A DNA stretch of 64,000 nt from Candidatus Nealsonbacteria bacterium (GTDB taxonomy: Bacteria; Patescibacteriota; Minisyncoccia; Minisyncoccales; MHMH01): assembly GCA_016181965.1 (NCBI GenBank), contig JACOYH010000007.1, positions 7,110 to 71,109 of the forward strand, in the 5' to 3' direction. Shown here piece after piece: positions 4,525 to 37,054 of this stretch. Each line of letters begins with the position of its first letter. Position 1 is the first letter of the stretch. A program made the translations under genes and the position numbers. A model generated the notes under the pieces. It did no database searches and was not told the DNA's origin. It saw nothing but the letters and a program-made list of their open reading frames with translations.

Positions 4525-4536
4525 ATGTATTGAAGG

Positions 4537-4561
4537 GTGTTAGACATTGAATGTCTAACAC
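4537..4561. repeat. Palindrome family P3, copy 1 (GTGTTAGACAT tga ATGTCTAACAC)
   Basis: Perfect 11-bp arms with a 3-nt centre, 13 nt upstream of the GerMN ATG. The same arms recur at 58705..58729. Confidence 0.85.
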
Positions 4562-4576
4562 GCCGCTCTTTTCCCT

Positions 4577-4639: not shown

Positions 4640-4645
4640 TGTGGG

Positions 4646-4698
4646 CTTTACCGAGGACTGTCCTTGCCAGATTCTGGCAAGGACAGTCCTCGGTAAAG
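4646..4698. repeat. 53-nt perfect hairpin/palindrome (25-bp arms, 3-nt loop) just after the AlkD-like gene stop
   Basis: ctttaccgaggactgtccttgccag att ctggcaaggacagtcctcggtaaag. No U-tract follows on the minus strand. Confidence 0.85.
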
Positions 4699-4706
4699 TC
4701 GGATAG

Positions 4707-5420
4707 CTATTTCTTGCCTGTGAGGAGTTTCCTTCTTGTTTCCCGAACTGCTATTTTGGGCAAAAACTCTTTGTTTACATCTATATAAAATGCAACTCTT
4801 TGGCGATGATTTTGAATCAAAGCCCTGATTAACCAAGATACGGCCTTAGTAATTAAAATATCTTTTTCGCTCTTGAGCTTGTCTATATTTTCAAACGCCA
4901 TATCGGCCAATAAATGACTATTAGACTCTCTGACGGGCTTGGTGAGTAAAACTAAGGCAGCTCGTCTCTTGTGAACATCTTTATGTTTGACAAACATTTT
5001 GAGTAATTTTTTCCATGCATCCCATTTATTCAGCAATTCTTCGGCCGTAAATATGCTTTGACATAAGGAATCAACTTCTGACCAACCCTTGGCTCCGGTC
5101 AGCCATCTATCTAAATAGCGTGGCTCAATTTTCTTTCGTAATGTCGGTAAATATTCCAAAAGCTTTCCGCCGAAAGTTCTTTCAGTGTGCGATTTGCCTT
5201 CAAAAAATGAGTTTAACACCAAAAGAAGTTCTGCTAATGAAATATCTTTATGTTCCTTTACCCATTTTTTGGCAATCTGCCGCACTTGCGGATTGGTAAT
5301 GTTATATATAGGGCGAGGTGTACCCATGTATTTACCAGCATAATACCATCCCGTATTTTGAGGATTTGAATTTGCCACCCTTTTGATTTTCCTTAAAATT
5401 TCTTGATGAGATTGATCCAT
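4707..5420 (-). CDS. DNA alkylation repair protein (AlkD/AlkC-like HEAT-repeat family)
   Basis: 237 aa with ...IAKKWVKEHKDISL...GKSHTERTFGGKLL...WSEVDSLC...HKRRAALVLL...ILITKAVSWLIRAL, resembling the DNA_alkylation family. Confidence 0.65.
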   Translation of the reverse strand: MDQSHQEILRKIKRVANSNPQNTGWYYAGKYMGTPRPIYNITNPQVRQIAKKWVKEHKDISLAELLLVLNSFFEGKSHTERTFGGKLLEYLPTLRKKIEPRYLDRWLTGAKGWSEVDSLCQSIFTAEELLNKWDAWKKLLKMFVKHKDVHKRRAALVLLTKPVRESNSHLLADMAFENIDKLKSEKDILITKAVSWLIRALIQNHRQRVAFYIDVNKEFLPKIAVRETRRKLLTGKK

Positions 5421-5537: not shown

Positions 5538-6584
5538 TTAACTGAATTGCCCGATGATTTTATCGATTAAATTATTTAAGTTATGGTGCTTAACTACGAT
5601 TTCTCTTCTTAATTGAGGATCTGCGGGGGCTGTCATTAGATTAGTAATTTTATCGGCTAAATCATTGGCATTGCCTTTTTCAAAAATGTATTTATCGGCC
5701 AGAATTTTTTTATAGGCCTCGTTGCAGGTTAAAACAAGACAGCCCGCAGCCATGGCTTCCAGCACTACTTTATCCAAACTGCCGGTTGAGCTGGGGTTAA
5801 CAAATAAATCGGCCTCTTGATAATATTCTGGCATTTTGGCGTGAGGCGCGCCGGCCAAAAACTCTATATGTTCGTTTAGTTTATAATTTTTAGCTTGCTC
5901 TTTCAGGTCAGCCAGATATTTTTTTTCTGACTCTACGAGAGGTGTGCCCATAATTTTTAAGTTGATGTTGCAGACCTTTCTTTGGTTAACTAAAATATTC
6001 ATTGCTTCAATAAGAGTGGCGTGGCCCTTAACTGGCACGAGACGCGCCGCATATAACAAGCGGAAGGATAGAAGCCCGGCTTCCCGCGGAAGCCGGGCCT
6101 CTTGAACCGGCCGGAAAAGTTCGGTGTCTATTCCCTGTCCCAGCGCTTCTATTTTTTTGCTCGAAAGCCGACAGCCATCGGGCGAGGAAGTTACAATGTT
6201 GTCCACCAGTTTTTCTGCTATTTTCAGCTTAAGAGGCGTGGCTCCGTGCGCATACCATAAAATCAATTTTTTCCCGAAAATCTTAGCCAAAGGAAAGCTG
6301 GCGATAGCGAAAACAGGCCCCATATGAACATAAACGCCTCTGGCTTCCGATAAATGCGCGAGCAAAAATTTCTGCAACCTCCAGAGCTGCCTTATTTTAG
6401 AATAGCCCCTTTCTTTTCCCAAAGATAAAACCTTAATATTTTTGGGCAAATGATGTTCGCCCTCCGAAAGACAAATAGCGTAAACCTCATCTAACCGTTC
6501 TGAAAACTTTTCCAGCGTGCGATAAAAAAAGCTAAGGTTGTCGTCGTTGATATCTATTTTCTGGACAATGATAATCAGCTTCAT
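5538..6584 (-). CDS. glycosyltransferase family 1 (GT4-type, GT-B fold)
   Basis: C-terminal VNPSSTGSLDKVVLEAMAAGCLVL (E-x7-E region). The stop overlaps the next gene's start. Carries palindrome P1 copy A. Confidence 0.8.
   Translation of the reverse strand: MKLIIIVQKIDINDDNLSFFYRTLEKFSERLDEVYAICLSEGEHHLPKNIKVLSLGKERGYSKIRQLWRLQKFLLAHLSEARGVYVHMGPVFAIASFPLAKIFGKKLILWYAHGATPLKLKIAEKLVDNIVTSSPDGCRLSSKKIEALGQGIDTELFRPVQEARLPREAGLLSFRLLYAARLVPVKGHATLIEAMNILVNQRKVCNINLKIMGTPLVESEKKYLADLKEQAKNYKLNEHIEFLAGAPHAKMPEYYQEADLFVNPSSTGSLDKVVLEAMAAGCLVLTCNEAYKKILADKYIFEKGNANDLADKITNLMTAPADPQLRREIVVKHHNLNNLIDKIIGQFS
6071..6101. repeat. Palindrome family P1, copy A, in-frame inside the GT4 gene
   Basis: gaaGCCCGGCTTCCcgcGGAAGCCGGGCctc, translated on the minus strand as EARLPREAGL. 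Confidence 0.85.
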
Positions 6585-7588
6585 TGATTGATCATTCTTA
6601 GATAATTATCTATATATTTCTCGTTAGAAAAATTTTCTTTGATAATTTCGCGCCCCTTCTGTCCCATTTCAATCGCCAGTTTTTCGTCGTTCAGCAGGAT
6701 TCGCAGCTTTTCAGCCAGCTCTTTTGAATTAGCAACTTCAAATAAAAAGCCGGTCTGCCCGTCTTTCACTAAGTCAGGAATGCCTCCAACATTGCTTGCC
6801 ACTACCGGCTTTCCAAGCGCCATCGCCTCCAGAATTACCCTCGGCAACCCCTCGGTTATGGAGGGCACAACCAAACAATAGCAGTCCTTCATTTTTTTCC
6901 TTGTTTCTTCTAACGGCAATTTCCCAGCAGGCAGCCCTTCGCCCACCATCACAAGCTCAAAGCCAGGGAAATCGGACCTGATAAGTTCATAGGCCTCCTC
7001 AAGATATTTTATACCCTTAACCACGTCTTTCCTGCCGACAAAAAGAATATATTTTTGAAAACTGGTGTTTTCTTCTTTTAAAAAATCATCTAAATCGGTA
7101 AAAGTTGGGAAAAGATAATATGCTTTATCCGGAGATATTTTTTTCGCTTTCGCTATAAGATAATTGGCCACTCCCCTAACCTTATCGGCGTTCTTTAAAG
7201 AAATTGGCGCTATTTTTGATAGATTCTTCTTAAAACCCCAGTCGCCGTGCAATTCGACGATTAATTCCTTGCCAAGTATCTTCTTTAAGATTGTCCCAAC
7301 TAAGCCCTCGACAAGCGGCCCTTGGCAAACGACCGTATCCATTTTTTTTGTCAGGCAAATCCAAAAAGCGGCAACAAAAGCCAATGGCCAGTAAAAAATT
7401 CCCGCTGGCAATAGCAAAAAATCCGCGCCCCATTTTCTCTGGCTGCAAAATCCTCCCTTGGCAAGCACGTAAGGCGCAATTCCCTTTGACAGGCCTGCCT
7501 GCGCAGACAGGCCTTCGAACTTTTTTTGCAAATGCAAATCGCTCGCCAAATTGTATTTAGTTACTCCAAGAAATAAAACTTTTTTCAT
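6581..7588 (-). CDS. glycosyltransferase family 1 (GT4-type)
   Basis: VVPSITEGLPRVILEAMALGKPVVASNVGGIPDLV. The ORF-track start at 7603 is TTG; the ATG at 7588 gives MKKVLFLGV. Confidence 0.8.
   Translation of the reverse strand: MKKVLFLGVTKYNLASDLHLQKKFEGLSAQAGLSKGIAPYVLAKGGFCSQRKWGADFLLLPAGIFYWPLAFVAAFWICLTKKMDTVVCQGPLVEGLVGTILKKILGKELIVELHGDWGFKKNLSKIAPISLKNADKVRGVANYLIAKAKKISPDKAYYLFPTFTDLDDFLKEENTSFQKYILFVGRKDVVKGIKYLEEAYELIRSDFPGFELVMVGEGLPAGKLPLEETRKKMKDCYCLVVPSITEGLPRVILEAMALGKPVVASNVGGIPDLVKDGQTGFLFEVANSKELAEKLRILLNDEKLAIEMGQKGREIIKENFSNEKYIDNYLRMINQ
7491..7514. repeat. 24-nt near-perfect palindrome inside a GT4 gene
   Basis: aggcctgcctgc gcagacaggcct with one mismatched pair, encoding GLSAQAGLS. 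Confidence 0.7.
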
Positions 7589-8627
7589 GTTCTTTAACAA
7601 CATCGTTCCAAGTATAATTCATGGGGATTTTCTTTATTTTCTCAACATAATCCGCGTAATTTTTCTCATCCAAAAGATATAAAATCTTTCTCTCTAAATC
7701 AGCCCCGTCTCTCGGATCTATTAAAATCAAACTATTTCCAACGGTATCCAGGCCGGTTTCTTTAGTCAGCAAAACTGGCTTTCCCATGGCCAGACATTCC
7801 AAAGCAAAATTGGGGGTAATTTCGGTGAGCGAGGGCAGTACGCAAATATAACTTCTGCCCATCTCTGCCATTAATTCTTGATGTGGCAGAGGAGACGCAA
7901 AAGTTACCTTGTCATATTTTATTAGATTTGTTTTTTCCGGCCCTTCGCCGATTATTTTGAGCGTTAACGGTTTGTCTGTTTTTGACAAGACATTATAGAA
8001 TACTTTGATTAAAAATTCCAGGTTCTTCAGTTTCAAAAGCCGCCCCGCGTATAGAATCTTGTAGTTTTCTGGCGTCGTTTGCAAAGGCGCTTCTTTGGCC
8101 TCGGGAAAGGGATTTTTTATGATGACTGTTTTCTCTGGCCTAAAGCCGTAATGTTTAAAATATATTTGCCGCTGAAAATCGCTTGTAAAAATTATTTTGT
8201 CGGTACTCTTGAGGATTTTTCCGATAATAAACATCGTTAACCTTTCTCGCAACGTTTTTACGGAACTCTCGTAGTATTCCCGTAAAGTTTGTTCGATTCT
8301 GCCTTGCTCCACCGCTCTTTCCCACAAAAAGTCGCCGCCGAGCCGTATGAAAAATCGTTTTCTCAAGATTTTACCGCAAAAGCAGGCGGGTATGCCGCAG
8401 CTTATGGCATTAAAAGCATAAATGGCATCCGCCCCCAAAGACGCTTTCAGGAGATTAGCGACATAGCAGGCAATTCTTAATGGCTGAGGAATTTTTCTAA
8501 GGTTGCCGTAAGAAACAACGGTTGTAGAAATTCCCCTGCCCTCAAATCCTTGCTTGAGTTTTTGGGCATATGTTGCCGGGCCCCCAATATCTGGCGGGTA
8601 AATTGGCGTGGCTAAAACAATTTTCAT
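7557..8627 (-). CDS. glycosyltransferase family 1 (GT4-type)
   Basis: MKIVLATPIYPPDIGGPATY... and VLPSLTEITPNFALECLAMGKPVLL. Confidence 0.8.
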   Translation of the reverse strand: MKIVLATPIYPPDIGGPATYAQKLKQGFEGRGISTTVVSYGNLRKIPQPLRIACYVANLLKASLGADAIYAFNAISCGIPACFCGKILRKRFFIRLGGDFLWERAVEQGRIEQTLREYYESSVKTLRERLTMFIIGKILKSTDKIIFTSDFQRQIYFKHYGFRPEKTVIIKNPFPEAKEAPLQTTPENYKILYAGRLLKLKNLEFLIKVFYNVLSKTDKPLTLKIIGEGPEKTNLIKYDKVTFASPLPHQELMAEMGRSYICVLPSLTEITPNFALECLAMGKPVLLTKETGLDTVGNSLILIDPRDGADLERKILYLLDEKNYADYVEKIKKIPMNYTWNDVVKEHEKSFISWSN

Positions 8628-9709
8628 CTTTTTACTTTTTGATAAATATCATATACCCTATTGGCGATATTTTGCCAGTTATATTTTGGCAAGACATTTT
8701 TTGCATTTTCAACCAGCATTTTGGCAAAATCAGGGTTGGATTGAATCTTGAATAAGGCCTCGCTAATTTGGCCAACATTGCCCGGCTCAACCAAAAGGCC
8801 GGTTTTCTGGTCTTCAATCAAGTCCAAAATACCTCCTACCCCGCTGGCAACAACCGGCAAGCCAGCGGCCTGCGCTTCCAAAACAACAATGCCAAAACCC
8901 TCTTGAATAGAGGGCAGAACAAAACAGTCGGCCATTGCCAAGTAAAAAGGAATTTTTTCATTGGGAATTTCTCCGAGAAATTCCACGCTATCTTCTGATT
9001 TTAATTGTTTAACTAAATTCTCAAGGTCCTTTCGCCTACTACCATCGCCGATAACCATTAACTCACTTGGTTGACACCTGGTGTCAACCAACGCTCTTAT
9101 TAAATATTCCACTCCCTTGACTTTTTCTAATCGGGCCACCGTAATGACAATAAACTTCTCGCGGGGCTGTCTCTTGATGTTTTCAAATCTCGATAGGTCC
9201 ACTCCGTTGGGAATAACTGCAACCTTTTTTACACCTATGTCTTCAAAATTTTTCTTGACGGCCGAAGAAGCGGCAATACAAAAAGCGGCTTTTCTGTAAA
9301 TAAAATTTTTCAAAGGATTTCTTTTCTTTTCGAGCCGTTGAACGGTAGTAATATAGGGAACTCTTGTTACGACAGAGAGGCAAAAACCCAGAAAGCTGCT
9401 TAGAAAACCTTGGCAGTGTAAAATATCAATTTTCTCTTGCCGCATTAAAATTAATGATTTCAGGAAAATACAGGGCAATAGGGAAACGGTATAGATTTTA
9501 GGGGAACGCGACAAATCAGATAAGGTAAAAAACGAAGTCCGGAAAATGCGCAATCCGCCTGCGGCCTCCTTGTTGGGCCGATTCTTTACCCTGCCTGTCA
9601 CCACGAAAACCTCGGCTTTTTTGGAAACATTCTCGGCAATATTGCGGGTCCATGTCTCAATGCCTCCAACAACCGGATAATAATGAAGCGCCGGCATCAA
9701 TATTTTCAT
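8624..9709 (-). CDS. glycosyltransferase family 1 (GT4-type)
   Basis: MKILMPALHYYPVVGGIETW... and VLPSIQEGFGIVVLEAQAAGLPVVASGVGG. Carries palindrome P2 copy 1. Confidence 0.85.
   Translation of the reverse strand: MKILMPALHYYPVVGGIETWTRNIAENVSKKAEVFVVTGRVKNRPNKEAAGGLRIFRTSFFTLSDLSRSPKIYTVSLLPCIFLKSLILMRQEKIDILHCQGFLSSFLGFCLSVVTRVPYITTVQRLEKKRNPLKNFIYRKAAFCIAASSAVKKNFEDIGVKKVAVIPNGVDLSRFENIKRQPREKFIVITVARLEKVKGVEYLIRALVDTRCQPSELMVIGDGSRRKDLENLVKQLKSEDSVEFLGEIPNEKIPFYLAMADCFVLPSIQEGFGIVVLEAQAAGLPVVASGVGGILDLIEDQKTGLLVEPGNVGQISEALFKIQSNPDFAKMLVENAKNVLPKYNWQNIANRVYDIYQKVKR
9067..9091. repeat. Palindrome family P2, copy 1, in-frame inside a GT4 gene
   Basis: TTGGTTGACACC t GGTGTCAACCAA, 12-bp perfect arms, encoding VDTRCQPS on the minus strand. 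Confidence 0.85.
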
Positions 9710-10942: not shown

Positions 10943-11752
10943 TCAATTCAAAAATAGGATATGTTTTTGCTCCCCAGCGTCTCTTGAAGTCGCCCAGAGT
11001 ACCAAGGAATGAGCGCCCTGTTTTTTATCTGATTTCTTAAAACCGCACAAAAAAGAATGCGCTATTTTATCGTAAAAAAGAAAGACATTACCCCCAATGA
11101 CGCCGCTTCTATTTTTTACCACCATGACCTCGGCTTGCTGATTTTGCAGAAAGAAACTGAAAAAAGAGAAAGGATAGGGCAGGGCCTTATGCTGTCTCAG
11201 GTTTTGAACATAGAGATCGTACAACGTCTTCAATTCGCTGATGCTTTGACACTTTGACACTGCAAAATCCTGTTCTTGAGCCGACTTTATTGAGCGATGG
11301 CGGTTCCTGTCTAATGTATCCCAAATTTCGGAGTCGGACAATGTATCTAAATTCTCAAAAAAGAAGGTCTCCCTTTCTGCTTCAGCCAGGGGCAGATTAT
11401 CAAAGTAATTAAAAATCATCGGATGAAAACTGATTTTAAAAGGCGTGTCTCTAAAATACTGCAGCACATCATCTGCAAACTTCTTGCCGTCGACCTTGTC
11501 TGCCAAAGGCAACGGCCCCCCATATTCGCAGAAGGGATGAGAAACGAGTTTTTCTCTCGCCCCTATTTTAACTCTCGCTAAGCTTAATAGGGCCTGATTA
11601 TTCCAAATGTAACGCTCGAATTTCAGCCATTTGAATTCTCGCTCTAAAAACTCCTCCCATTCCAATAAATGAAAAAAAGTCCTGAAAAAGACCTTATCTA
11701 ATAATTTTTGCCATTCTTCCCTATTTTTGATTTGCAAGAATTTGTTTTCCAT
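10943..11752 (-). CDS. FemAB/BioF2-like GNAT-fold transferase, apparently frameshifted; the C-terminus continues in another frame to 10827
   Basis: The ORF ends ...GAHSLVLWATSRDAGEQKHILFLN*. The -1 frame from ~10995 reads ...GDFKRRWGAKTYPIFELRNYSSESRLKKSFLRDLWVFMPIDLIKILSPRLLKYKL* and stops at 10827-10829, 2 nt before the DegT ATG. Confidence 0.6.
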   Translation of the reverse strand: MENKFLQIKNREEWQKLLDKVFFRTFFHLLEWEEFLEREFKWLKFERYIWNNQALLSLARVKIGAREKLVSHPFCEYGGPLPLADKVDGKKFADDVLQYFRDTPFKISFHPMIFNYFDNLPLAEAERETFFFENLDTLSDSEIWDTLDRNRHRSIKSAQEQDFAVSKCQSISELKTLYDLYVQNLRQHKALPYPFSFFSFFLQNQQAEVMVVKNRSGVIGGNVFLFYDKIAHSFLCGFKKSDKKQGAHSLVLWATSRDAGEQKHILFLN

Positions 11753-14303: not shown

Positions 14304-15140
14304 TTAAAATTGGCTCCGAATACCTTTCTTCTCGGGGTCTTCTATGCCTTGCTGTCTCATCAAATCTTCGTTGATGGCTTCAGCCATCTTGTGAAGCCGC
14401 AAATCAACTCCCCTTGAATCAGCCAACTGAATCAAGGCCCTAATGTCTTTTGGCAGACACTTGCCGCCATATCCTCTATAGCCCTTGTGGAAAATATTAA
14501 GGTGAGTCCGGCCAATTCTTTTATCGGCAGCCGCTCCCTCGACCATTCTGTCATAGTTCACGCCGAGCTTCTGGCACAAATCATACATTTGGTTGGCAAA
14601 ACTGACCTTAACGGCAAACCATGAATTGCCAAAATATTTTATCACTTCGGCTTCAGTAGCCGGCAGAGTCCTTTCGAAGGGAGCCAATGGTAAAAGTTGC
14701 ATGACATCCCCGGCGACCGTCTGGCTTTGCGCGGTATAGCCCACAATTTGCCTGTCGGGATAAAGCATATCCTGGTCGGCAGTTTCTTCCGTCAAAAACT
14801 CCGGATTCATCATAAGCTTGTGCTGGGGATATTTTTGCTGAATCATTTCGGTGGTGCCGGGCATGATAGTGGACTTGACAACCACCACCTTTTCTCCCTG
14901 CAGCATACCCATTGTTTCTTCCACATAGGATAAATCAAAACCCTTGCCATCCTTCAAATATGGAGTCGGCACGCAGACGAAAACAATCTCTGCCTTATTA
15001 ACCTCTTCGGGCGAGCCAAGGTTTTTGCCTTTATCGTATAAGAAAAGCTCAACACCTTCTTTTTTATCAAAATAGCGCTGGAGAGCACCTCCCACCATTC
15101 CAGTGCCAACGATGCCTATTTTAGTGAATCGTTTGAACAT
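14304..15140 (-). CDS. UDP-glucose/GDP-mannose dehydrogenase-family protein (short form)
   Basis: N-terminal KIGIVGTGMVGGA Rossmann motif; GGKCLPKD resembles the catalytic-Cys motif of UGDH. Confidence 0.65.
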   Translation of the reverse strand: MFKRFTKIGIVGTGMVGGALQRYFDKKEGVELFLYDKGKNLGSPEEVNKAEIVFVCVPTPYLKDGKGFDLSYVEETMGMLQGEKVVVVKSTIMPGTTEMIQQKYPQHKLMMNPEFLTEETADQDMLYPDRQIVGYTAQSQTVAGDVMQLLPLAPFERTLPATEAEVIKYFGNSWFAVKVSFANQMYDLCQKLGVNYDRMVEGAAADKRIGRTHLNIFHKGYRGYGGKCLPKDIRALIQLADSRGVDLRLHKMAEAINEDLMRQQGIEDPEKKGIRSQF

Positions 15141-15278
15141 AGAAGTGATTTATTAATAAATTATTAAGCTTGTTTAATTGAAACCTATAATCTATTATAT
15201 ACAGAAAGGAGAAAATCTGTCAATTTACCTGCCCCGTTAGAAATTACCAAATTAATGGGGCAATAAGCGGAAATTACT

Positions 15279-16439
15279 ATGAAGGAAAAAACAAACCAAA
15301 TTTCTAATGGGGTGAAAAGGGTCTTATTTTTGGTTACTCAATCGGAAATGGGGGGCGCCCAGAGGTATATTTTTGAGTTGGCGCGCGGTCTGGATAAGCA
15401 AAAATACGAAATTTCAGTTGCCGCCGGCGAAGGAGACGGAGAATTATTTGAAAGGATTGCGCCCCTGCAAGTCAAAACGCACCAACTAATAAATCTTAAA
15501 CGCGCGCCAAATCCCTATCTCCTTATTGCTGCGGTCGTGGAGATAAGGAGATTGCTTAAAAAAGAAAAGCCGGATGTCTTGTTTCTGTGCTCCACCACGG
15601 CCGGATTGCTCGGCTCTATCGCAGCTATTTTCTTGCCCGCAAAAGTAGTATACAGAATTGGCGGCTGGGCATTCAGGGATCCGCGGACTTTTTGGAAGAA
15701 TTGGCTGATTTTGCTCGCAGAGAAGATGACTGCTCCCCTTAAAGATAGAATCATTGTCAATTCGGAAATTGATCGTAATTTAGCTATAAAATACAAAATT
15801 GCTCCGCCGGGGAAAATAATCAAAATCTATAACGGCATTGACCCGGATTCTTTAAACTTTTTAAGCCAACAAGAAGCCCGGAACCGGTTGACACCAGGTG
15901 TCAACCAAGGTGTCAACCAAGTCGTGGTTGGAACGGTGGCAAATTTTTATAAAACCAAGGGATTAGAATATTTAATCGAGGGCTTCGCGAGGTCCGACCT
16001 CGCCAAAGGCGGGTCAAATCTCATTATCATCGGCGAGGGGCGAGAACGGCCGAAACTGGAAACCTTAATTAAAAAACATAAGATAGAGGATAAAGTCATT
16101 TTAGCTGGACGTCTGCCTGACGCTTACAAATACTTGAAGGCCTTTGATGTTTTCGCGCTTCCCTCCCTAAAAGAGGGCTTTCCTTGGATAATTCTAGAGG
16201 CAATGGCCGCTGAAGCGCCGATTGTCGCTACTAAAGTCGGCGCTCTGCCAGAGATCATTGATGACGCTAAAGAAGGATTTTTAGTAGAGCCGAAAAATAG
16301 CAAGGCCTTGGCTGAAAAAATAAAATGGGCGTTAGAACATCAGCAAGAAGCCAAAGAGATGACCGCTCGAGCCAAAATAAAAGTTCTCGCTCGATTTTCT
16401 CTCTCTAAAATGATTGAGGCCACTCAAAATGAACTCTAA
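15279..16439 (+). CDS. glycosyltransferase family 1 (GT4-type)
   Basis: ALPSLKEGFPWIILEAMAAEAPIVATKVGALPEI. Transcribed divergently from the 5538-15140 operon. Carries palindrome P2 copy 2. Confidence 0.85.
   Translation: MKEKTNQISNGVKRVLFLVTQSEMGGAQRYIFELARGLDKQKYEISVAAGEGDGELFERIAPLQVKTHQLINLKRAPNPYLLIAAVVEIRRLLKKEKPDVLFLCSTTAGLLGSIAAIFLPAKVVYRIGGWAFRDPRTFWKNWLILLAEKMTAPLKDRIIVNSEIDRNLAIKYKIAPPGKIIKIYNGIDPDSLNFLSQQEARNRLTPGVNQGVNQVVVGTVANFYKTKGLEYLIEGFARSDLAKGGSNLIIIGEGRERPKLETLIKKHKIEDKVILAGRLPDAYKYLKAFDVFALPSLKEGFPWIILEAMAAEAPIVATKVGALPEIIDDAKEGFLVEPKNSKALAEKIKWALEHQQEAKEMTARAKIKVLARFSLSKMIEATQNEL
15886..15920. repeat. Palindrome family P2, copy 2, with a tandem duplication of one arm, in-frame inside a GT4 gene
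   Basis: GGTTGACACC a GGTGTCAACC aa GGTGTCAACCAA, encoding PGVNQGVNQ. Confidence 0.85.
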
Positions 16440-20885: not shown

Positions 20886-20953
20886 TATTTTATTATACCA
20901 TTATGTCAGCATGATGTCAGGATGTCCGGCACCCCTCAATTCTGTACTTGTTA

Positions 20954-21007
20954 GGTCTGTTAGAGCCAGGCTCTAACAAGCTTGTTAGAGCCTGGCTCTA
21001 ACAGACC
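20954..21007. repeat. 54-bp perfect palindrome centred on ACAAGCTTGT
   Basis: ggtctgttagagccaggctctaacaag|cttgttagagcctggctctaacagacc. An extra taacagacc copy follows at 21011-21023. Confidence 0.9.
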
Positions 21008-21026
21008 TGCTAACAGACCTAACAGA

Positions 21027-21057
21027 AAACAAAAGCCCCCGAGATAATCTCGAGGGC
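21027..21057 (-). terminator. Rho-independent terminator of the 1395-aa surface-protein gene
   Basis: Minus-strand RNA gcccucgag auuau cucgggggc (9-bp stem with one G-U pair) followed by UUUUGUUUU. Confidence 0.65.
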
Positions 21058-21116
21058 TCTTGCTTTTCTCCCGCACAATCTCTCACAAGGAAAAAGATGC
21101 GGAAATTCCTACAGCG

Positions 21117-24100
21117 TTACTTAGACAGAGTCAGAGTTTGCGTCGGCAAGCCGGAGACCTTGTAGTCCACGCTCCAGTCGCTGGTACCCATTGTGTGGGT
21201 TCCGCCAGCTCCGGATCTATCAGACCAAACGAAGGTCGCGGCAGTTGAAGTGACTGGCATCACGCTGTTTCCATGAGCCCATCCGCCGCCAACAGCCGTT
21301 TCAAAGGAACCGGTTGTGGTTGCAGTGGATCTCTTTTCAATCTTGAAAGACAGCGAGTCGCCGGCCGCACCGCCGTAAGCAATGTCTCCTCTCAACTCGT
21401 AGGTCTTGGTTGCGCCTGCGGAAATCGTCTGCTCGTTCTTAGCAACGAACCCGACTCTGGCGCCGCCACCTGTAAAGTTGTGGACATAGTAACCAGTGTC
21501 AGTCGTGGTAGGCAGAACTTCTTCGTTTGTCGCAACATCGTAGACCTTCATCGTGCTGGTGGCAACCAATGACTTGGCCACGTTAGCAACGTCAGTCGTT
21601 GAGGTACCAATAAAGATGGCAGCAGTGGTTGTTGAACCGCCGGCGCCAACCGTGTAGGCCTCGGAACTGACTGTAACGTTACCTGACACGTCAAAGATTA
21701 CTTTCTTCCAGCCAATGTCTCCGCCCGAATCAGCCGTAACAGTCCATCTGTAGAGCACCTTTGTGCCAGCGCCAAATGAAGTGCTGGGCAAAGAGGCGGC
21801 TGCCACAGTGGGCTTTGTCTTATGGAGAATCTGAACATTACCGCAAATCCTCGCTGTGTCAGCACTAATCGTAGAACCGGAACTTACTCCGATCGCGTCG
21901 GTGCTGCTAGCCAGACATAGCTGTGGAGCGTTACCGGTCGTGGCTCCAGCTTGATCAGCTGATTTCACGCCGTAAATGTCGGCTTTAACAAGCAAGGTTT
22001 TAGTGGTATCTCGCGGAATTCTCCAGTAAGAGCCAACCGGGAAGTTGAATGTGGTTGACGAGTCAGTCAATCCGGAGCTTACCAAAACTTGGTCCACTCC
22101 TAATTTAGTGCTGCCGTCCCACAAACTGACATTGGCGAAATCAGCGTCAACTGCCTGTGTCCTGTCAATACTGATCGCCTTGACATCAATATCTTCCCTG
22201 GCAGCAGTGAGAGTCACAGCCAAGAAGGTTACATCCTGCTTAACAGCGCCGGTGTTGCCAACCGCGACTATCCCTATCTCGGGATTGGTCGGAGAAGGCG
22301 CGGCCTGTACTGTCAGGGTTCCTCTGGCCTGAACGGTCACATAGTTGATAGCTGCCGGGCTTGAACTGGTACTGAAGTTCACGCCGCCAAGAGCCGAACT
22401 GTAGCTCAAGGTGGTAGTTGGCGTTGAGTTGGAACTCAAACCGGTAAAGACGATGTGCTTTGTCTGCTGTGAAGCATCAGAAGAACTGGAAATACCGAAA
22501 GCGATACGGCTGCCAGCTACTGCGGTTGAGGAAATGTCGGCCTTAACGGTAATCGTTTTTTGACTACCCTTAGTGACATCAAACCCTTGCGAGTTTAAGA
22601 AGTCAGAGGCCGAGAAGGTCACGGTTGTTGCCGTAGACGAGTCCCAGTCCCTAAATGTAGTCAATCTGGTAGTTCCTTCGTAAAGGGCGATGTTTTCCAA
22701 GTTGTCTTGGTCCGCGTCGGCAGGAGCGCCAGCGATATCACTGCTGGAGGCGCCCGAGGCGCTCAACTTGATGTAAGTCACCCTGACATCTTCAGATGAA
22801 CCGGCGGTAAACACCAATCCAACAATTGAAATTCCGGTCGCTCCGACAATCGCGTTCTGGTCGCCAGGAATAGCGGCTGCGGAAACGGTCAGAACTCCCT
22901 CGCCAATAGTCATTGTTTTACCAGTAACCGATGAAACGGTTTCGGTCAGCGTGGCCGAAGAAGCAACACCGGTGGTCACAATGTCAGCATTATTGGTAAG
23001 TTGCATATTACCGGTAGCCAAGGCGGTTGAAGTCGGAACATCTGCTAAAACCTTCAAAACCACGGTCCCTGAAGCTGGCACTGTCAGATTAATACTGAAA
23101 GCGGCTTCAGTTGTCGGCGCGGTAACGGTTGAGCCGAGCTGGGTTCCGTCAGAAACTTTCAACAGTTTGACATTGGTGTAATCGCCCGACGCCGCGTTTG
23201 ATCCCGCTGACTTCAGGTCAATAGTAACTGACGAGACGGTCAGGTCTTCTCCGGAATCAGCCGTCAGATTGAATCTTAAGAACTCCTGGTCGGTTGCGCC
23301 CTTAATAATGTTTTGCGCGGCAGGAGTGTTGGCATTCAAGGTAACGGTCAATGCGCCGCTGGCGCCAATGGTGTGAAGATTGGCATTGCCGCTGGTCAAG
23401 GTAGTGTCGCTCTGCGTAATGTCATACTTTGACTCTAATCCGTCAACCCAGACGTCGGTGTTAGCGGCGATATCCAAGTCAAGCGTTTTAGTAGCTGTGG
23501 CTCCGCTGGGAATATCGGCTTTAACCTGAATTGTTTTGTTGCCCGACTTTGGCACATCAAACAATCCGGGGCTGTCGTATCCCACAGAGTTTGAACCGAA
23601 TGTTGCGTAATTACCGATTAGAGATACGGCGCTGCCGATTTGCGTTGAGCCGTCCCAAAGAGTGACATTGGAAATATCAGTGGCCGCGCCATTGCCATTG
23701 TTAAGCTTTAGCCGCAACTTGACAATTCTTACGCCCTCCCGCGAACCCGCGGAGAACTTGAAAGCCGAGAATAATCGGCTGGTAGTTCCCTTGGTGTAGG
23801 TTTGAGCGGCCGGGTTGTAAGCCGAATCAATGTTAACGGTTAAAGTGCCTTGTCCAATGGTCATGGTTTGGCTGGTCTGCTTACTGAAAGCGGCTGTGTC
23901 TGATGCGGCTACTTCTATTGAGCCGCCGGAGTTAGCTCCGTAAGACGCAACATCGCTCACTTCGGTGATCTCAAAAAGCACAGTTCTGGCTGTGGAAATT
24001 CCCGAAGCAATGTCAGCGTAACCGTAAATGGTCTTTGTGGCGCTGGCCAAGATTTGGAAGGGATTGCCCGACAAATCAATAGTGGCCTTGCCCTGGGAAT

Positions 24101-25304
24101 TAAGCGCAGCAACAGTACTGCCGATCTGCTCGCCAGCGTATTTCAACTTGATATTGGAAATATCGTTGGTGGATGCAGAGCCGGTTTGAGTCACTACGAT
24201 TTTAGTCACATATACGGCCTCACTTGAACTGGCTGTAAAGTCCCAGGAAGCGATTTCCTGCTCGGTTGCTCCGGACAAAATAGTTGCGTTAGCTGGAGTC
24301 ACGTTAGCAGAAACGAATAATTCGCCGACTGAAATTCCAGCGATAGTCAAGGCCTTGCCGTATGCTGGGAATGTTCCGCTGACTGTGGCAGAAGTTGTGA
24401 CATCAGCGGCAGAATCAATACCCAACGTAATGCTGTCGCCGACAGTGGCAGTGCCCTTGGCGGCAACGCTAACTTTCACGGTTAGGTATTTGGTTGTGTT
24501 GGCAGGAATTTGCCAGGACAAGCCTGTAAATGTTGCCTTGTGCGTGTTGGTGTTTAAAGCCTGTGACGAGCCCAACTGGGTCGTGCCGTCATAGAGCTTA
24601 ACAGCAGAAACATCAGCGTCGGCTGACACGCTGTCTCGCTTTATTTTAATCTGGGTAACAGTATAGCCGGTAGTGCCGCCTTCGAATTTGAATTTAGCGG
24701 CGTCAGCATCAACTGCGGCCAAAGCTATTTGTCTTGCTGCCGGTGTGTCGGAAGCCAAACTTATAGCGGCTGTGCCTGATGGCGCTGGGGCAGGAGGCGG
24801 TGTCGATGGCACGCCAGATGACAACAATGCGTTCAGCTTAGCTCTGGTAGTTGAGCCAACGTAGCCGGTGCCTTTGGTCAATCCCCAAGAAGCCAAAATA
24901 TCGCTGGCGTATTTCTCTTGGAATTTGACAACCGCCGCTTTGGTCAAAGGACCAAAGTAGGTTGTTTCCATTCCCTTAGAACCAACGCCGGATGCGGCCA
25001 ATTGGGTGGCAGAATCGGAGTTTAAGACAATCTGAAGATATTTCACTTCATTACCAGAAGCGCCCAATTCAATGGCTGTCATAAAGGTGAAATCAGCCGG
25101 AACGCCTGTGATGGCGCCGCCGGTTGTTCCGCCCTCAACTGTGGACAGCTGCGATTGTAATGCGGCTATTTGAGCCAAAAGGGTGTCAATCTGGGCTTGA
25201 AGTTCGGCAGCTGTAATGGCTCCGGCAACTCCGGGGCCCATCAGCCATACAGCGGTGGTAATGGTCGTAACGGTCGCTACAATCTTTTTAGTTAATTTAT
25301 TCAT
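21117..25304 (-). CDS. giant (1395 aa) T/S/A/G-rich cell-surface protein: signal/anchor, coiled coil, PG-binding domain, Pro linker, six or more ~130-aa Ig-like repeats (S-layer or fibril candidate)
   Basis: [97 protein letters not shown]. Recurrent ...DIS.V.L.DG.TQ.GS... modules. Visibly higher G+C than the flanks. Confidence 0.8.
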   Translation of the reverse strand: [1395 protein letters not shown]

Positions 25305-26204: not shown

Positions 26205-26276
26205 ATCGGATATCGATTGTCTATTATAGTTATGACGGAAAAGAAGATATTTTGTTACACCAATATCCAGCCATCG

Positions 26277-26330
26277 TTTGTGATAGGCCGGGCTTATCAC
26301 AAGCTTGTGATAAGCCCGGCCTATCACAAA
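26277..26330. repeat. 54-bp perfect palindrome centred on ACAAGCTTGT, between the sigma and anti-sigma genes
   Basis: tttgtgataggccgggcttatcacaag|cttgtgataagcccggcctatcacaaa. Confidence 0.9.
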
Positions 26331-26349
26331 CAAACCGCTTATTACAAAC

Positions 26350-28445: not shown

Positions 28446-31400
28446 AAGCCATAAAATCTATAGGGGGTAAACTATCTTTGCAAAAGACGATTTTAACGAT
28501 TGCCATAGCCGCAATCGTTTTTTCTTTCTTGTCCAATTATTCTTTGGCCGGCCAAACAAAAGTCAACCAGCAAGAAATGCAAAGAATCAAACAGGGCTTG
28601 GATATTGTTAAAACAGCTTCAAGTTTCGGAAGCGTTCTTCTTGACGATGGCGGCTTAATGAAAGCGCTCAACACGGTTATCAAGGGCGGCAGCGCGGCCA
28701 CGGATGTCACCTACGGCCTGCTTGTCTTGAGCGCCGTCAACGAAATGGAACTAATGGATTTGGTGCTTTCGCAGGAGTATAAAACAATAGAAAGAGAATA
28801 TTTTGAACAAATTTTAGACGAGAGGACCAATTTAATATCTTATTGGAGAGGAGTTGGTTTTGACTTGCCCAAAGTGCTCTCTGGACAGATTACCGGCCCC
28901 ATGGCTGGCTTAACTTTAAACAGCTTTGCTATGACCAACAAAATTATCCATATTGCCACCGCGTTTGAAGTGTTAAAAAAAGGCCAACTGTATGATGGCC
29001 TATGGTATTACTTTGATTTAAGAAAAAATAGCAATGAGCCGCATGAAATAGCTTGGCGCGAAGCAAAAATGATACTTGGTTTTGCGACTAATTCAGTGGG
29101 ATTTCACGGACCAACACAAAGACAGAATAAAAGAATCGAGCTCGAAGCTCAATTCACATCCCTTTGGGATAAATGGGGGCTATACGCCACGCCAGGAGGC
29201 ATCAGTAATCAGTATCAAGAACAAGCAAAAGAGGAAATGAGAAGCATGCTGGCCGTGGCAGCTGAAACGCAAAGGTTAGCTGAAATAGAAAAACAAAAAG
29301 AACCATCTTGGCTATCAAAACAAATAGATGAACTCAAAACACTCGCGTCAGGCCTTGGAGAAAAAATTCACACTATGGTCTCCAAGATCGCCGACGCCAA
29401 TCCCTTTAGCGCCGGCCCAATTGTCCAATCGCCAAAAGATACACCGGTGGCACCGGTGCGAAATTCGGCCGGGCTTCAGAGCCCCAAAAACCGAGAATCA
29501 GAAGACCAAACCCCGACAGAAAGAGGCGAAGAAGCCCGGCTTCCTCGGGAAGCCGGGCTTCAGGTTCCACGAGAGGTCCCACGAGAGGTCAAACCTCAAG
29601 CGCCTCAAGAGATTGAAAGTGAAAAGACAACAGAGGAGAAAGTGAAAGATAAAGAGGTCCGAGAAGAGGAAAAAATTAAAATAGTCGAGATCAAACCCAC
29701 GCCAGATGAGCCGGGACTTTGCGAGAAAATTGCCGGGGACTTGCCTAAAAGATATAGGGCTTTCATTAACGAGGTGGCCTGGATGGGCAGTCAAAATTCG
29801 CCAAATGACGAATGGATTGAGCTGAAAAATATTTGGGGCTTACCCGTCAATCTTAACGGCTGGCAATTACAAGACAAAGACCAGCAAATAAAAATAATTT
29901 TTGAAGAAAATGATACTATTCCGGCCAGCGGATATTATCTTTTAGAAAGGACAAATGATGACTCAACGCCCAAAGCCAAGGCCGACAAAATATACACGGG
30001 CGCTTTAGGCAATAACAATGAGGCCTTATATTTATTTGATAATGACTGCCGATTGGAAGACGAAGTTATAGCCGATCCCAGTTGGCCAGGCGGCGACAAT
30101 ACCGCTAAAAAAACAATAGAACGGCTGGATCCCTTATACTGGTACACAAGCGCTTCTATAGGGGGCAGCGCCGGAAAAAACAACGGCACGCCTCCGGCAA
30201 TTTTAAAGCACCCCAGCGCGCCAACTCCCCCTTTGCCTGCTTCAGCGCCGACTTATCTTACAATTTTGATTGACGAAGTCAGAATTGATGGCGATGGAAA
30301 TATCAAAAACGATTCCGTTAAACTCTACAATCCCAACGATACGGCGGTTGATTTAACAAATTGGTATTTGCAAAGGAAAACAGCGAACTCTTCCGTATTC
30401 TCAACTTACGCGCCAAAATCGCTTTTTGCCGGAAAATCCATTGAGGCAAACGGATACTTTTTAATTGCTCACGCTTCTTCAACGTTCGCTACTTCCGCAG
30501 ACGCCATCACAACTTACTCTCTGACTCGAAATAATACCCTCGTCTTAAAAAATCCAAATGGTGAAATAGCGGACACGGCGGAGCCAGCAGAAAATAACGA
30601 AGAAACGGCGTCGTTATCGGTTGTTATCAACGAAATCGCTTGGGCAGGCGCTAAGGCCAATTCTGCCGATGAGTGGATTGAACTTTACAACAACACTACT
30701 TCAGGTATTGATTTGACTAATTGGTCAATTTTGAAAGATGACGAGGAATGGATTATCTTTTCCACCTCAAGCATCGTCTCGCAGGGATATTATTTATTGG
30801 AAAGAAGCGACGATCAGACAATCAGCGATATTACGGCCGACCAATTTTTTACCGGCGCTCTAAGCAACAGCGGCCAAAAATTAGAATTAAAAAATGCAGC
30901 CGGTGACTTAATGGACTTAATTGATTTTTCTTCTAATTGGCCAGCCGGCGAAGCCGCCCCAAACTATCTTTCAATGGAAAGGATATCTTCTACTTTCAGC
31001 GATTGGGCTAGCAATAATCGAATCTCAACAAACGGCTTGGGTAGCGGCAATAATGCCATCAACGGCACGCCGAAAGAAAAAAATAGCGTTTCGAAGTCCT
31101 TCACAGAAGTTGTCGGCGATCGCGTATTTTCAGACGACTTTACGCTTACAAAACTTGGCAGTCCTTATATTTGGGAGGGCTCCCTTATCATGGAGCAGGG
31201 GACTAAATTAACCGTCGAACCCGGCGTTACCGTAAAATTCAAGCACACTGCCCCTAACCAGCCCCACGCTCAAGTAAAAATAAAAGGCGAGATGGAGGCC
31301 ATTGGAACAAACGAGCAAGAAATAACTTTTACGTCTTTTCAGGAAAATAATTATTGGGACGGGCTTTATTTTGAGAATTCAAATTCTACTCTTGAAAATG

Positions 31401-32446: not shown

Positions 32447-33138
32447 AATCCGATAAAATCGCGAATAACCGGAGCAGGAATAGCCGAAACTCTACCCTGC
32501 GCGCCAACCATGCTTATGCCAACAACTTCGCCGGAGATGTTAAACAAGGGGCTGCCAGCCGCCTTGGATTCACGAATGTTTGTCACCACTGCGTCTTGGC
32601 TGAAATAAGAAACAATGCCCTCGTCTGTAAACATCTTAGTGGTTGTGGCCAATCTCATCGTGCCAAGTAAAAAAACTCTTTCTCCAAGGTCTGTTTTTTC
32701 CAAATTCGCGAAGCCGGCAGTGCGCAAACCGCTCTGGTCCACTTTCAACAGCGCCAAGTTGCTTTTTGTATCTCTTTTAAGTATCTGCCAAGCAGGCAAC
32801 TGGCCATCAACGTAAAAATAAAAATCTGCTCCCTGCGGCACGAGCTCGGCCAATGTAACAATCAACCCATCAGAAGTTACCGCCAAGCCAGTCCCCTCTA
32901 ACGTTTCTCCGCTGGCTGTTTTTGTCCTGACGCCCACAATAGTTTTTTCCACCCTTTCAATGGCTTGAGTAAGGGCAACGTTTTCCTGAACGGTTATTGT
33001 TTGAGTCTGATTGATAACAATTTCGCCGTCAAAAAAAGAAGACCCCATCAAATACGGCAAAAGGTAGGCCTGCGCCCAAACGCCCCCCAACGCCCCAAAA
33101 AGAAAAATCAAGAGAATTTTTAGAATTTTTTTAGACAT
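32443..33138 (-). CDS. HtrA/trypsin-fold protein with all three catalytic-triad positions substituted (predicted pseudo-protease)
   Basis: Compared with the active HtrA at 37149-38387: TNKHVV becomes TLAELV, DLAILKI becomes NLALLKV, and GNSGGPLL becomes KAAGSPLF. Its start overlaps the clpB stop by 8 nt. Confidence 0.7.
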   Translation of the reverse strand: MSKKILKILLIFLFGALGGVWAQAYLLPYLMGSSFFDGEIVINQTQTITVQENVALTQAIERVEKTIVGVRTKTASGETLEGTGLAVTSDGLIVTLAELVPQGADFYFYVDGQLPAWQILKRDTKSNLALLKVDQSGLRTAGFANLEKTDLGERVFLLGTMRLATTTKMFTDEGIVSYFSQDAVVTNIRESKAAGSPLFNISGEVVGISMVGAQGRVSAIPAPVIRDFIGF

Positions 33139-35845: not shown

Positions 35846-35932
35846 CACCGTAATTTAACAAAAAAACTTCAAAAAATCAACCCCGCATTATGCCCCTTAT
35901 CTTACATAGTCTTACAGAAGCCGCCACTCAAT

Positions 35933-35958
35933 ACTACTATACTACATAGTATAGTAGT
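35933..35958. promoter_or_regulatory. 26-bp AT-rich palindrome, site 1 of 3 (candidate operator)
   Basis: ACTACTATACTA ca TAGTATAGTAGT, 103 nt upstream of the clpB ATG and 60 nt after the NDT-like gene stop. Confidence 0.6.
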
Positions 35959-36017
35959 GTTTAGTGCCGCCCTTGGCGACTATTTCTACGTTTTATAGAA
36001 AGCATCGTGGGGATTTT

Positions 36018-36431
36018 TCATGCAATTTGCGATAAGTCGCCATAAATTATCGTCGGCTTCACTGCCTCAATTTCTGATTTGTAATACGATATGTCAGGAA
36101 TCGGATTGTATAGGAATATCTTTTGATTCAGAACATGCGCGAAACCGATTTCCATCAATGTATTTCCGCCAATGTAATTCTTAATTCCATGCTTATCGAG
36201 ATTAAGAACTAAGACGGCATCCGCTCCTTGCATCTCGTTCCAGAATACTCTAATCGCATCCATATTACTTTTCTGATGAATTTTGATTCTTTCTTTTTCT
36301 TCGTCACTTTTTCCAATAAATGACCCATGTAGTTCTGTGACGAACGCATCGTGCCCCAACTTAATCAGATTATCTCTGACCTCAAGCATTTTCTCTGTAT
36401 ATTGCATACTACCAATGATTCCTATTTTCAT
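36018..36431 (-). CDS. nucleoside 2-deoxyribosyltransferase-like (NDT/YtoQ-type Rossmann-like) protein
   Basis: MKIGIIGSMQY...ADAVLVLNLDKHGIKNYIGGNTLMEIGFAHVLNQKIFLYNPIP resembles the Nuc_deoxyri_tr2-like family. Confidence 0.45.
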   Translation of the reverse strand: MKIGIIGSMQYTEKMLEVRDNLIKLGHDAFVTELHGSFIGKSDEEKERIKIHQKSNMDAIRVFWNEMQGADAVLVLNLDKHGIKNYIGGNTLMEIGFAHVLNQKIFLYNPIPDISYYKSEIEAVKPTIIYGDLSQIA

Positions 36432-36504
36432 ATTCTTATGACCCGAGAGCCTTTATATTTTTCACCGATCCCGTAGGAATAATGTTATCCCGATTAATTA
36501 CAAT

Positions 36505-36530
36505 ACTACTATACTACATAGTATAGTAGC
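36505..36530. promoter_or_regulatory. 26-bp palindrome, site 2 of 3
   Basis: ACTACTATACTA ca TAGTATAGTAGc, 1 nt after the regulator's stop codon and 74 nt upstream of the NDT-like ATG. Confidence 0.6.
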
Positions 36531-36531
36531 A

Positions 36532-37002
36532 TTACTGTATTTGTTTTTTGCGTTTTGTGGTCGGTTTTTCTGAAGAATCTAAAAGATTAAAAAGCAGAAA
36601 ATGAAGCGGGTATCGCTTTTTAAGCCATCCAAAAGTCAGCGGCTGACTTTGTTGGAGCTCACGCTCGCCTGCTTTCCACTGCAACTCTAATTCTTTTTCT
36701 AAACGCGGAAGTATTTGAGCATATCCTCCATCTCTGCCTTGCAACCACTTATGCACCCCTGCGATGGTAATGTGGCTCGTATGCATAGCATTGCGAATAT
36801 CATCGTAGCTTTTGCCCTCAAGCAGAAAGCGAGCAATGCGAATTCTTCGCGCCAACATAATAGCTTCTGTTTCGCTCAAAAGATCGCGGAAAAAATTCTC
36901 TATCTGCTCTCTTGTTTCCAATAAAATCACTAAACTCCATAATTCATTCAGAAGATTGTGTTTTTCGTCTTTGGAGATTGTTTTTGGCTGAACCCTCGGC
37001 AT
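36532..37002 (-). CDS. TrpR-like/YerC-YecD-family helix-turn-helix protein
   Basis: ...REQIENFFRDLLSETEAIMLARRIRIARFLLEGKSYDDIRNAMHTSHITIAGVHKWL... Confidence 0.65.
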   Translation of the reverse strand: MPRVQPKTISKDEKHNLLNELWSLVILLETREQIENFFRDLLSETEAIMLARRIRIARFLLEGKSYDDIRNAMHTSHITIAGVHKWLQGRDGGYAQILPRLEKELELQWKAGERELQQSQPLTFGWLKKRYPLHFLLFNLLDSSEKPTTKRKKQIQ

Positions 37003-37022: not shown

Positions 37023-37054
37023 AACACTACTATACTATATAGTATAGTAGTGTT
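37023..37054. promoter_or_regulatory. palindrome site 3 of 3, here a perfect 32-bp palindrome abutting the regulator's -10 box
   Basis: aacACTACTATACTA ta TAGTATAGTAGTgtt. On the minus strand a TATAAT (37023-37018) follows directly, 15 nt before the ATG at 37002. Confidence 0.65.

Follow-up and report, generated by a model that had tools for sequence, protein, structure and literature searches.

Cyanobacteria are known for very small dispersed repeats, only tens of nucleotides long, that form hairpins, multiply in the genome, and can sit in coding sequence. The Rickettsia palindromic elements (RPEs; Ogata et al. 2000, 2002) are larger with ~105–150 bp and give rise to peptides that are conserved within a family (PMC10969869, PMC3184786). 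Repetitive extragenic palindromic (REP) elements are extragenic by definition and carry a conserved GTAG or CGTC at one end (PMC3733652, PMC3184786). SPRITE of Streptococcus pneumoniae is a terminator-like mobile repeat of about 105 bp (PMC3049150, PMC3184786), and an example of mobile GC-rich hairpin clusters is found in organelle genomes (PMC4524435). Described herein is a 24-nt palindrome within a glycosyltransferase family 4 (GT4) gene of a Candidatus Nealsonbacteria bacterium, a member of the Patescibacteria or candidate phyla radiation (CPR), together with the population of short palindromes in which it is embedded. The window, i.e., the whole stretch of DNA that was analyzed, comprises 64,000 nt of contig JACOYH010000007.1 (positions 7,110 to 71,109 of the forward strand). 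The palindrome is a true 18-nt insertion by which a surface loop of the glycosyltransferase gains six amino acids, and short palindromes with shared sequences occur in the window, in excess over chance, in unrelated genes and between genes.

The target palindrome at positions 7491–7514 (aggcctgcctgcgcagacaggcct, i.e., AGGCCTGCCTGC|GCAGACAGGCCT) consists of two 12-nt arms that are paired at 11 of 12 positions and are not separated by a spacer. Read as given here, it is antisense to its host, the GT4 gene 6581–7588/7603 (minus strand). The sense strand of this gene reads GGC CTG TCT GCG CAG GCA GGC CTG TCA and encodes GLSAQAGLS, residues 25–33 of a 335-aa product (gene 6581–7588), of which a 100%-identical database copy uses a longer start. 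The length, the single mismatched pair, and the encoded peptide are exactly those given in a first-pass annotation of this DNA that was made from the sequence alone. A 9-nt direct repeat, GACAGGCCT on the plus strand, occupies positions 7488–7496 and 7506–7514 with a 9-nt spacer (7497–7505) in between; the net insertion is 18 nt. The site can be written as TTCGA AGGCCTGTC TGCGCAGGC AGGCCTGTC AAAGG, or as GAAGGCCTGTC[TGCGCAGGCAGGCCTGTC]AAAGG.

When the host protein is aligned with 60 homologs, KKFE[GLSAQA]GLSK is present only in the query and in the database copy that is 100% identical to it, and all other homologs (59 of 59) read KKFE------GLSx without the six residues. The same 18 nt are missing from the orthologous DNA of three syntenic relatives (L001, L002, and L003; related loci are designated by such numbers throughout), the first of which has 78% amino acid identity. 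In the AlphaFold2 model of the host enzyme (mean predicted local distance difference test score of 92), residues 25–32 form a coil between helix 18–24 and strand 37–44, and the coil with the insert is the 10-residue block of lowest confidence. It is this insertion evidence, not the pairing score, by which the target is taken as real. With a predicted RNA fold of −18.1 kcal/mol (z = −2.5), it is among the weakest palindromes, and ~2.5 of equal strength are expected by chance per window. The 65%-identical homolog P0018 of L005 exhibits its own 7-aa insertion four codons downstream of the target site. This insertion is encoded by CCTGCCTGCCGGTAGGCAGG, has the 12-mer AGGCCTGCCTGC in common with the target, and is preceded by AAGG as the target is.

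The palindromes of the window belong to families whose members are found in different genes. The family P1 is present in three host genes in two reading frames, and the flanks of the copies show no similarity. The copy in the GT4 gene 5538–6584 (6070–6102, minus strand) is built of two 13-nt dyads GAAGCCSGGCTTC and a short spacer, encodes EARLPREAGLL, and folds with −33.4 kcal/mol. The gene of a 1335-aa lamin-tail/β-helix (LTD) protein contains a copy at 29531–29561 (plus strand; −30.9 kcal/mol) that is read in the same frame as EARLPREAGLQ, and an Mfd/TRCF-like helicase gene contains one at 56482–56514 (plus strand) that is read in a different frame as GSPASAGSRTS. The loop of the RID domain that holds the latter is 8 residues longer than in Mfd of Escherichia coli, and the closest Mfd homolog (P0122 of L086, 75% identical) lacks this loop. 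An Mfd that is 100% identical to that of the window is known from a Nealsonbacteria metagenome-assembled genome at NCBI, and homologs from the databases bear the name Candidatus Nealsonbacteria. The family P2 is represented by TTGGTTGACACCAGGTGTCAACCAA at 9067–9091 (minus strand) of the GT4 gene 8624–9709, which encodes LVDTRCQP in the loop after the helix YLIRAL, and by a copy at 15886–15906 (plus strand) of the GT4 gene 15279–16439. The second copy encodes LTPGVNQ and, together with a duplication of its right arm, spans 15886–15920. The two P2 copies share 23 identical nucleotides in nonhomologous loops of the two enzymes. In the topoisomerase I gene, ATTGCCGAGGACAGTCCTCGGCAAT at 59473–59497 (plus strand) encodes IAEDSPRQF and folds with −21 kcal/mol (z = −6.6); the dyad CCGAGGACWGTCCTCGG/CCGAGGAC is common to this gene and the intergenic stretch 4644–4700. 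There are three copies of P1, two of P2, two of GTGTTAGACAT, and two to three of CCGAGGAC in the 64 kb. All window copies of P1 and P2 are coding. Most palindromes are intergenic, typically right after stop codons, at a density roughly 15–50 times the genic one. The view of the first-pass annotation that the palindromes are a matter of GT4 genes and the glycan cluster is therefore not upheld, since the same families occur in the Mfd, lamin-tail/β-helix, and topoisomerase I genes and most palindromes lie between genes.

The excess over chance was determined by a uniform scan for palindromes of at least 10 pairs with at most one mismatch and a loop of at most 10 nt. In the whole window, 38 such palindromes are observed against 7.6 ± 2.9 in dinucleotide shuffles, and for at least 12 pairs, 19 are observed against 0.7. 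The five GT4 genes, all of which encode enzymes of the GT-B type with a Pfam Glycos_transf_1 domain (68–151 bits; cutoff 26.4), contain six palindromes of at least 10 pairs, against 0.5 ± 0.7 in codon shuffles, and the other 51 open reading frames (ORFs) of the window contain 13, against 5.7. The resulting rate ratio is 4.8 (p = 0.005), for a gene class that was picked after the palindromes had been seen. Matches occur in four of the five GT4 genes (5538–6584, 6581–7588, 8624–9709, and 15279–16439), and the fifth, 7557–8627, has no palindrome of at least 9 pairs; both the count and the empty gene are as previously annotated. In place of a genome-wide scan, 23 independent, related CPR loci served for comparison (315 kb with 92 ORFs of the GT4 class and 234 others); among the GTDB representatives, the best locus is 64–67% identical to the window. 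In the 23 loci, palindromes of at least 10 pairs number 43 in GT4 ORFs (17.9 expected from codon shuffles) and 56 in other ORFs (32.1 expected), a ratio of 1.5 (p = 0.027). For at least 12 pairs, the figures are 13 (1.6 expected) and 14 (3.0 expected), respectively, with a ratio of 1.8 (p = 0.08). The specificity for GT4 that was at issue in the first-pass annotation is hence weak. Because of the low ratio in the related loci and the post hoc choice of the class in the window, GT4 genes are only modestly preferred hosts and no special case.

Every palindrome of the window is also found in the assemblies of SRR12113383 and SRR12113384 (L081 and L082), which match the window at 99.93% identity; the agreement of two independent assemblies argues against assembly artifacts. 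An assembly or amplification artifact was considered and is ruled out by these two assemblies and by analogous inserts in many metagenome-assembled genomes. The orthologous contig of L002 ends (L002:7640–7653) exactly at the site that P1 occupies in the window gene 5538–6584, which suggests that such repeats break short-read assemblies. Compared with L081 and L082, the window lacks 74 nt at ~10993 in gene 10943–11752. The lost piece contains the palindrome GCGCCGCGGCGC, and its loss leaves an Acetyltransf_6-like gene with 269 aa instead of 328 aa; this difference stems either from a polymorphism between strains or from an error in assembly.

The basic unit of the palindromes is a dyad of 13–25 nt, e.g., GAAGCCSGGCTTC, GAGGTCNGACCTC, GAGACCSGGTCTC, or GGTTGACACCWGGTGTCAACC, two copies of which often combine into one longer palindrome. 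The elements are 18–60 nt long and relatively GC-rich. Their center usually measures 1–3 nt, and 17 of the 38 palindromes have one central unpaired base, compared with ~3.5 expected if loop sizes from 0 to 10 were equally likely. The single-base centers and doubled dyads hint at a symmetry on the level of DNA rather than at typical RNA tetraloop hairpins. The intragenic minority is always in frame, is found in variable loops, and adds about 4–17 residues. All GT4 palindromes other than the one at 8964–8984 are located at sites where orthologs differ in length. Hence, the tolerance of GT-B enzymes for loop insertions, which had been offered as an explanation in the first-pass annotation, is backed by these length-variable sites as well as by the low model confidence of the target coil. 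The palindrome at 8964–8984 (minus strand) of gene 8624–9709 is weak (10 pairs, z = −2.0) and probably due to chance because it is placed inside the conserved and indel-free segment FLGEIPNEK.

The GT4 gene 15279–16439 demonstrates how such loops differ between relatives. Compared with L001, it contains insertions of 4 aa (P2) and 5 aa, the latter at 15984–16006 (plus strand), where a palindrome with a GAGGTCCGACCTC dyad encodes ARSDLAK; this 13-mer is found again in L001, L008, L084, and L085. At 15897–15920, the right arm of P2 is duplicated in tandem as an exact 12-nt repeat (GGTGTCAACCAA twice, encoding GVNQGVNQ), which is clearly a slippage product beside a hairpin. The L001 ortholog has its own 16-aa insertion elsewhere, made of two GGAGGTCWGACCTCC dyads, and the L008 ortholog contains four palindromes. 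Each genome has its own dominant dyads, as seen in L008, where two 42-nt copies occur in two unrelated genes, and in L011. The loop after the helix YLIRAL of gene 8624 differs by species and is filled by P2 in the window, by GAGACCCGGTCTCC-TTG-GGAGACCGGGTCTC (ARPGLLGRPGL) in L011, and by a GATC/GGTC-type pair TRSDLALAGSDL in L008. The RID-domain loop of Mfd holds different double-dyad palindromes in three other CPR genomes, and these fold with −26 to −51 kcal/mol. At 4 of the 10 pairs in the loop of gene 15279, both partners differ among the sequences of four species, with 90% of cells paired; only 6 of 500 shuffles match this pattern. In the loop of gene 5538, pairing is likewise kept between the window and L008 by complementary changes in the arms. 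Such changes, as seen in four sequences, could result from selection for a hairpin, from self-correction of the quasipalindrome, or from the exchange of one family member for another.

We consider it somewhat better than an even bet, with a probability of roughly 0.55, that these palindromes are REP/REPIN-like miniature hairpin repeats, which spread within each genome and are kept in coding DNA only when they are in frame in permissive loops. Copies would spread to new sites in the genome, and the most plausible route is that an IS200-like Y1/HUH transposase, of the type of REP-associated tyrosine transposases (RAYTs), handles them as single-stranded hairpins; selection would remove coding insertions except for in-frame ones in permissive loops. 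In GT4 enzymes, the permissive loops would include the linker between the domains, an N-terminal coil, and the loop that follows the first helix of the C-terminal domain. GT4 genes may host repeats somewhat more often because there are several such loops per enzyme and many GT4 genes. The symmetry would be kept over time if one family member replaced another, if one arm corrected the other (quasipalindrome correction), or if selection favored it. The single-copy target would probably be a member of the same genome-wide repeat population. More tentative, and not the likelier case, is a broader version, according to which Nealsonbacteria, and probably other Patescibacteria, carry undescribed hairpin elements of ~18–60 nt that are moved by a distinct and widespread Y1/HUH family, routinely enter coding DNA in frame, and rewrite the same surface loops of housekeeping and envelope enzymes, their pairing being actively maintained by palindrome self-correction or hairpin selection.

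A candidate for the enzyme is suggested by the close relative L086, which contains a 234-aa ORF (gene 451–1155) between pth and mfd that matches Pfam Y1_Tnp (IS200-like) with 31.3 bits (cutoff 23). On both sides (378–424 and 1167–1249), this gene is flanked by the perfect 47-nt palindrome TTGTTGAAGTCAGACTTAAACAA.C.TTGTTTAAGTCTGACTTCAACAA with 23-nt arms, and an additional arm is found inside the gene. A transposase gene that is flanked by its palindrome is the arrangement typical of REP/RAYT systems. The Y1 protein has 481 homologs, many of them from Patescibacteria and many on contigs of ~1 kb; the named ones include Nealsonbacteria, Kuenenbacteria, and Pacebacteria. At the syntenic spot 55241–55263 (plus strand), the window has a single arm of the flanking palindrome (20 of 23 nt), which encodes the C terminus LLRSDFNK of peptidyl-tRNA hydrolase; L086 has both arms in frame at this spot (LLKSDLNNLFKSDFNK). 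The arms of the L086 element resemble the palindromes in the loop of gene 15279 of L022 and L008 (TTGTTGA...TCAACAA) as well as P2 of the window (GGTTGA...TCAACC).

Several observations weigh against repeats that spread by means of such a transposase. Each family has only 2–3 copies in 64 kb, and the target is the only copy of its sequence in the window at up to three mismatches; its half-sites recur, across all sequence examined, only in the related insert of L005. The metagenomes of the Joint Genome Institute (JGI) contain the exact P1 pattern only once, as a canonical terminator. Filled and empty sites were not seen as polymorphisms between near-identical strains, a target-site duplication was not seen for P1 and P2, and there is no GTAG or CGTC tag at the flanks or ends of P1, P2, the target, or the other families. 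Pfam scans and tblastn found neither a Y1 nor another transposase in the 64-kb window. The L086 protein itself scores 17.4 bits against the NCBIfam model REP_Tyr_transpos (cutoff 80), i.e., below the RAYT family, and has no sequence match in the PDB. The complementary arm changes at orthologous sites could equally reflect selection for a functional hairpin, and a local duplication is a possible origin of the target because a 9-nt direct repeat flanks it. The metagenome match (JGI, L080:1874–1902) reads AAAGCCCGGCTTCC-TTT-GGAAGCCGGGCTTT followed by GTTTT and is located 22 nt past the stop of an unrelated 562-aa ORF. In viral contigs, the P1 pattern has no match.

Selection could in fact be the primary cause if the intragenic palindromes were RNA or DNA hairpins that act within the mRNA of the glycan operon, for example, in translational pausing at domain boundaries, RNase protection, or as processing sites, with the peptide inserts as a tolerated by-product. 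This is unlikely, even though the hairpins are very stable (−31 to −35 kcal/mol for P1; z-scores of −3.6 to −6.5), the loop of gene 15279 shows the covariation given above, and the peptide changes with the pairing kept in the loops of gene 5538 and Mfd. In addition, the cluster 15140–5538 consists of overlapping genes behind a single perfect sigma-70 promoter. The same sequences are, however, also found in unrelated nonoperonic genes and in intergenic DNA, the sites are empty in close relatives that do well (L001, L002, L003, and P0122), and the GT4 gene 7557–8627 in the middle of the operon has no palindrome. The covariation stems from four sequences, and family replacement or quasipalindrome correction gives the same pattern. 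The promoter itself, a perfect TTGACA-18-TATAAT at 15194–15223 (minus strand) upstream of gene 14304–15140, is likely the start of a ~9.6-kb glycan operon running to 5538, from which the GT4 gene 15279–16439 diverges. Rather improbable is also a purely local origin of the target without a mobile element, in which slippage or template switching duplicated AGGCCTGTC (GLS) and a short spacer was filled in. Such an event would leave a 9-nt direct repeat around a 9-nt spacer, as observed, and the self-complementary AGGCCT, once duplicated, yields 6 of 12 pairs automatically. The target is single-copy in the window, and a clear slippage product exists at 15897–15920 next to P2. Against this origin, the spacer TGCGCAGGC is not contained in the ancestral local sequence, a homologous insert (~19 of 22 nt identical) is placed at a different codon in another lineage, and the window-wide excess of palindromes with its shared families speaks for a general process.

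The first-pass annotation had also named, as a possible explanation, hot spots of recombination at which glycosyltransferase genes are reshuffled. No support was found for this reading, whether for genes or for domains, and it is very improbable. The 23 identical nucleotides of P2 in two GT4 genes and the insertions near the boundary of the two Rossmann domains would fit this proposal. Yet, L001 and L002 show unbroken synteny with the window, and these loci, L008, and others share its gene order and domain architecture. No chimeric GT4 was seen, 23 nt are marginal for homologous recombination, and the same repeats occur in single-copy housekeeping genes. As far as the limited data go, they point to an absence of rearrangement breakpoints at the palindromes. 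The shuffle controls, together with the indel evidence, largely refute chance or codon-driven palindromes without biological meaning. Chance probably accounts for the palindrome at 8964–8984 and would provide ~2.5 palindromes of the strength of the target per window, but it explains neither the six palindromes in the GT4 genes against 0.5 expected nor the 19 strong ones in the window against 0.7, and the target falls precisely on a lineage-specific indel. Transposon-excision footprints and P-nucleotide-type palindromes are ruled out since the inserts are shared between distant sites and do not derive from local flanks. A single uptake signal or restriction site is ruled out by the many unrelated palindrome sequences. 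The window encodes a ComEC-type competence channel (45377–46819), through which short foreign DNA could be taken up.

The intergenic palindromes of the window comprise single and double forms. The stretch 4644–4700 is a double palindrome of two CCGAGGACWGTCCTYGG-type dyads, 7 nt past the stop of gene 4707–5420, and GTGTTAGACAT..ATGTCTAACAC at 4535–4563 has its second copy at 58703–58731. A perfect 56-nt double palindrome (20953–21008), with TGTTAGAGCCWGGCTCTAACA twice, lies downstream of gene 21117–25304, and a 60-nt double palindrome (26274–26333) lies 17 nt past the stop of a sigma-factor gene. A T-tract follows only 1 of 12 intergenic palindromes (21034–21058) and none of the intragenic copies, which argues that the intergenic ones are mostly not canonical terminators. 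Intragenic terminators were dropped as a candidate since a terminator and promoter scan shows no terminator-like enrichment in the cluster. Scans of the window against Rfam and for tRNAs gave no match, so that the palindromes do not represent known RNA families. A palindrome of a different kind is AT-rich, 32 nt long (AAYACTACTATACTA..TAGTATAGTAGYRTT), and present in three copies (35930–35961, 36502–36533, and 37023–37054) upstream of clpB (33131–35830), the ORF 36018–36431, and the gene of a TrpR-family regulator (36532–37002). It looks like an operator common to a small stress regulon, a kind that differs from the GC-rich repeats.

In the full-text library searched, nothing relevant was found on palindromes in CPR, Patescibacteria, or Nealsonbacteria; within the limits of this library, the phenomenon appears undescribed. 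If the reading as spreading hairpin repeats is true, streamlined CPR genomes of ~1 Mb carry active miniature hairpin repeats that shape 3′ untranslated regions and protein loops. Rickettsia would thereby be joined by a second, independent example of reduced genomes in which selfish palindromes live inside genes. Odd short inserts in CPR proteins, such as GSPTS..GSRTS, RPGL..RPGL, and GLSAQAGLS, would then be palindromes on the DNA level and not functional motifs, and the Y1 protein with its flanking palindrome would be a testable candidate for an enzyme–substrate pair. For annotation and assembly, it is of relevance that contigs break at repeats, as L002 does at P1, and that many transposase homologs lie on contigs of ~1 kb. 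Herein, the claim of a GT4 peculiarity carries little weight, GT4 genes being tolerant hosts.

Compared with the described systems, the elements resemble RPEs in being palindromic repeats that occur in frame in unrelated protein genes of a small-genome bacterium and also between genes, and in adding peptides that are tolerated where the fold allows. They differ from RPEs by their length (18–60 nt, i.e., 5–10 times shorter), by their host phylum (Patescibacteria/CPR) and the lack of any sequence relationship, and by the reading of P1 in two frames (EARLPREAGL and GSPASAGSRTS) as opposed to the conserved peptide of an RPE. With Rho-independent terminators and SPRITE, they have in common that GC-rich stem-loops are concentrated past stop codons, whereas the T-tract of terminators is mostly missing, as described above. 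Miniature inverted-repeat transposable elements consist of terminal inverted repeats around a core and produce a target-site duplication, whereas here the palindrome is the whole element, P1 and P2 lack a duplication, and the 9-nt repeat of the target is ambiguous. The small repeats of cyanobacteria and organelles are alike by description, with different lineages and sequences. REP elements differ in that a sizeable minority of the palindromes described here is coding and in frame, the GTAG/CGTC tag is missing, and the window has no Y1 gene; the Y1 protein of L086 is far below the NCBIfam cutoff for RAYTs. The flanking of a Y1/HUH gene on both sides by its cognate palindrome, found only in the relative L086, is as in REP/RAYT systems. 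The palindromes share with REP elements and REPINs that they are 20–40-nt, GC-rich, and imperfect, frequently form doublets that give a longer hairpin, lie mostly at the 3′ ends of genes (P1 and P2, with all their window copies coding, excepted), and belong to genome-specific families.

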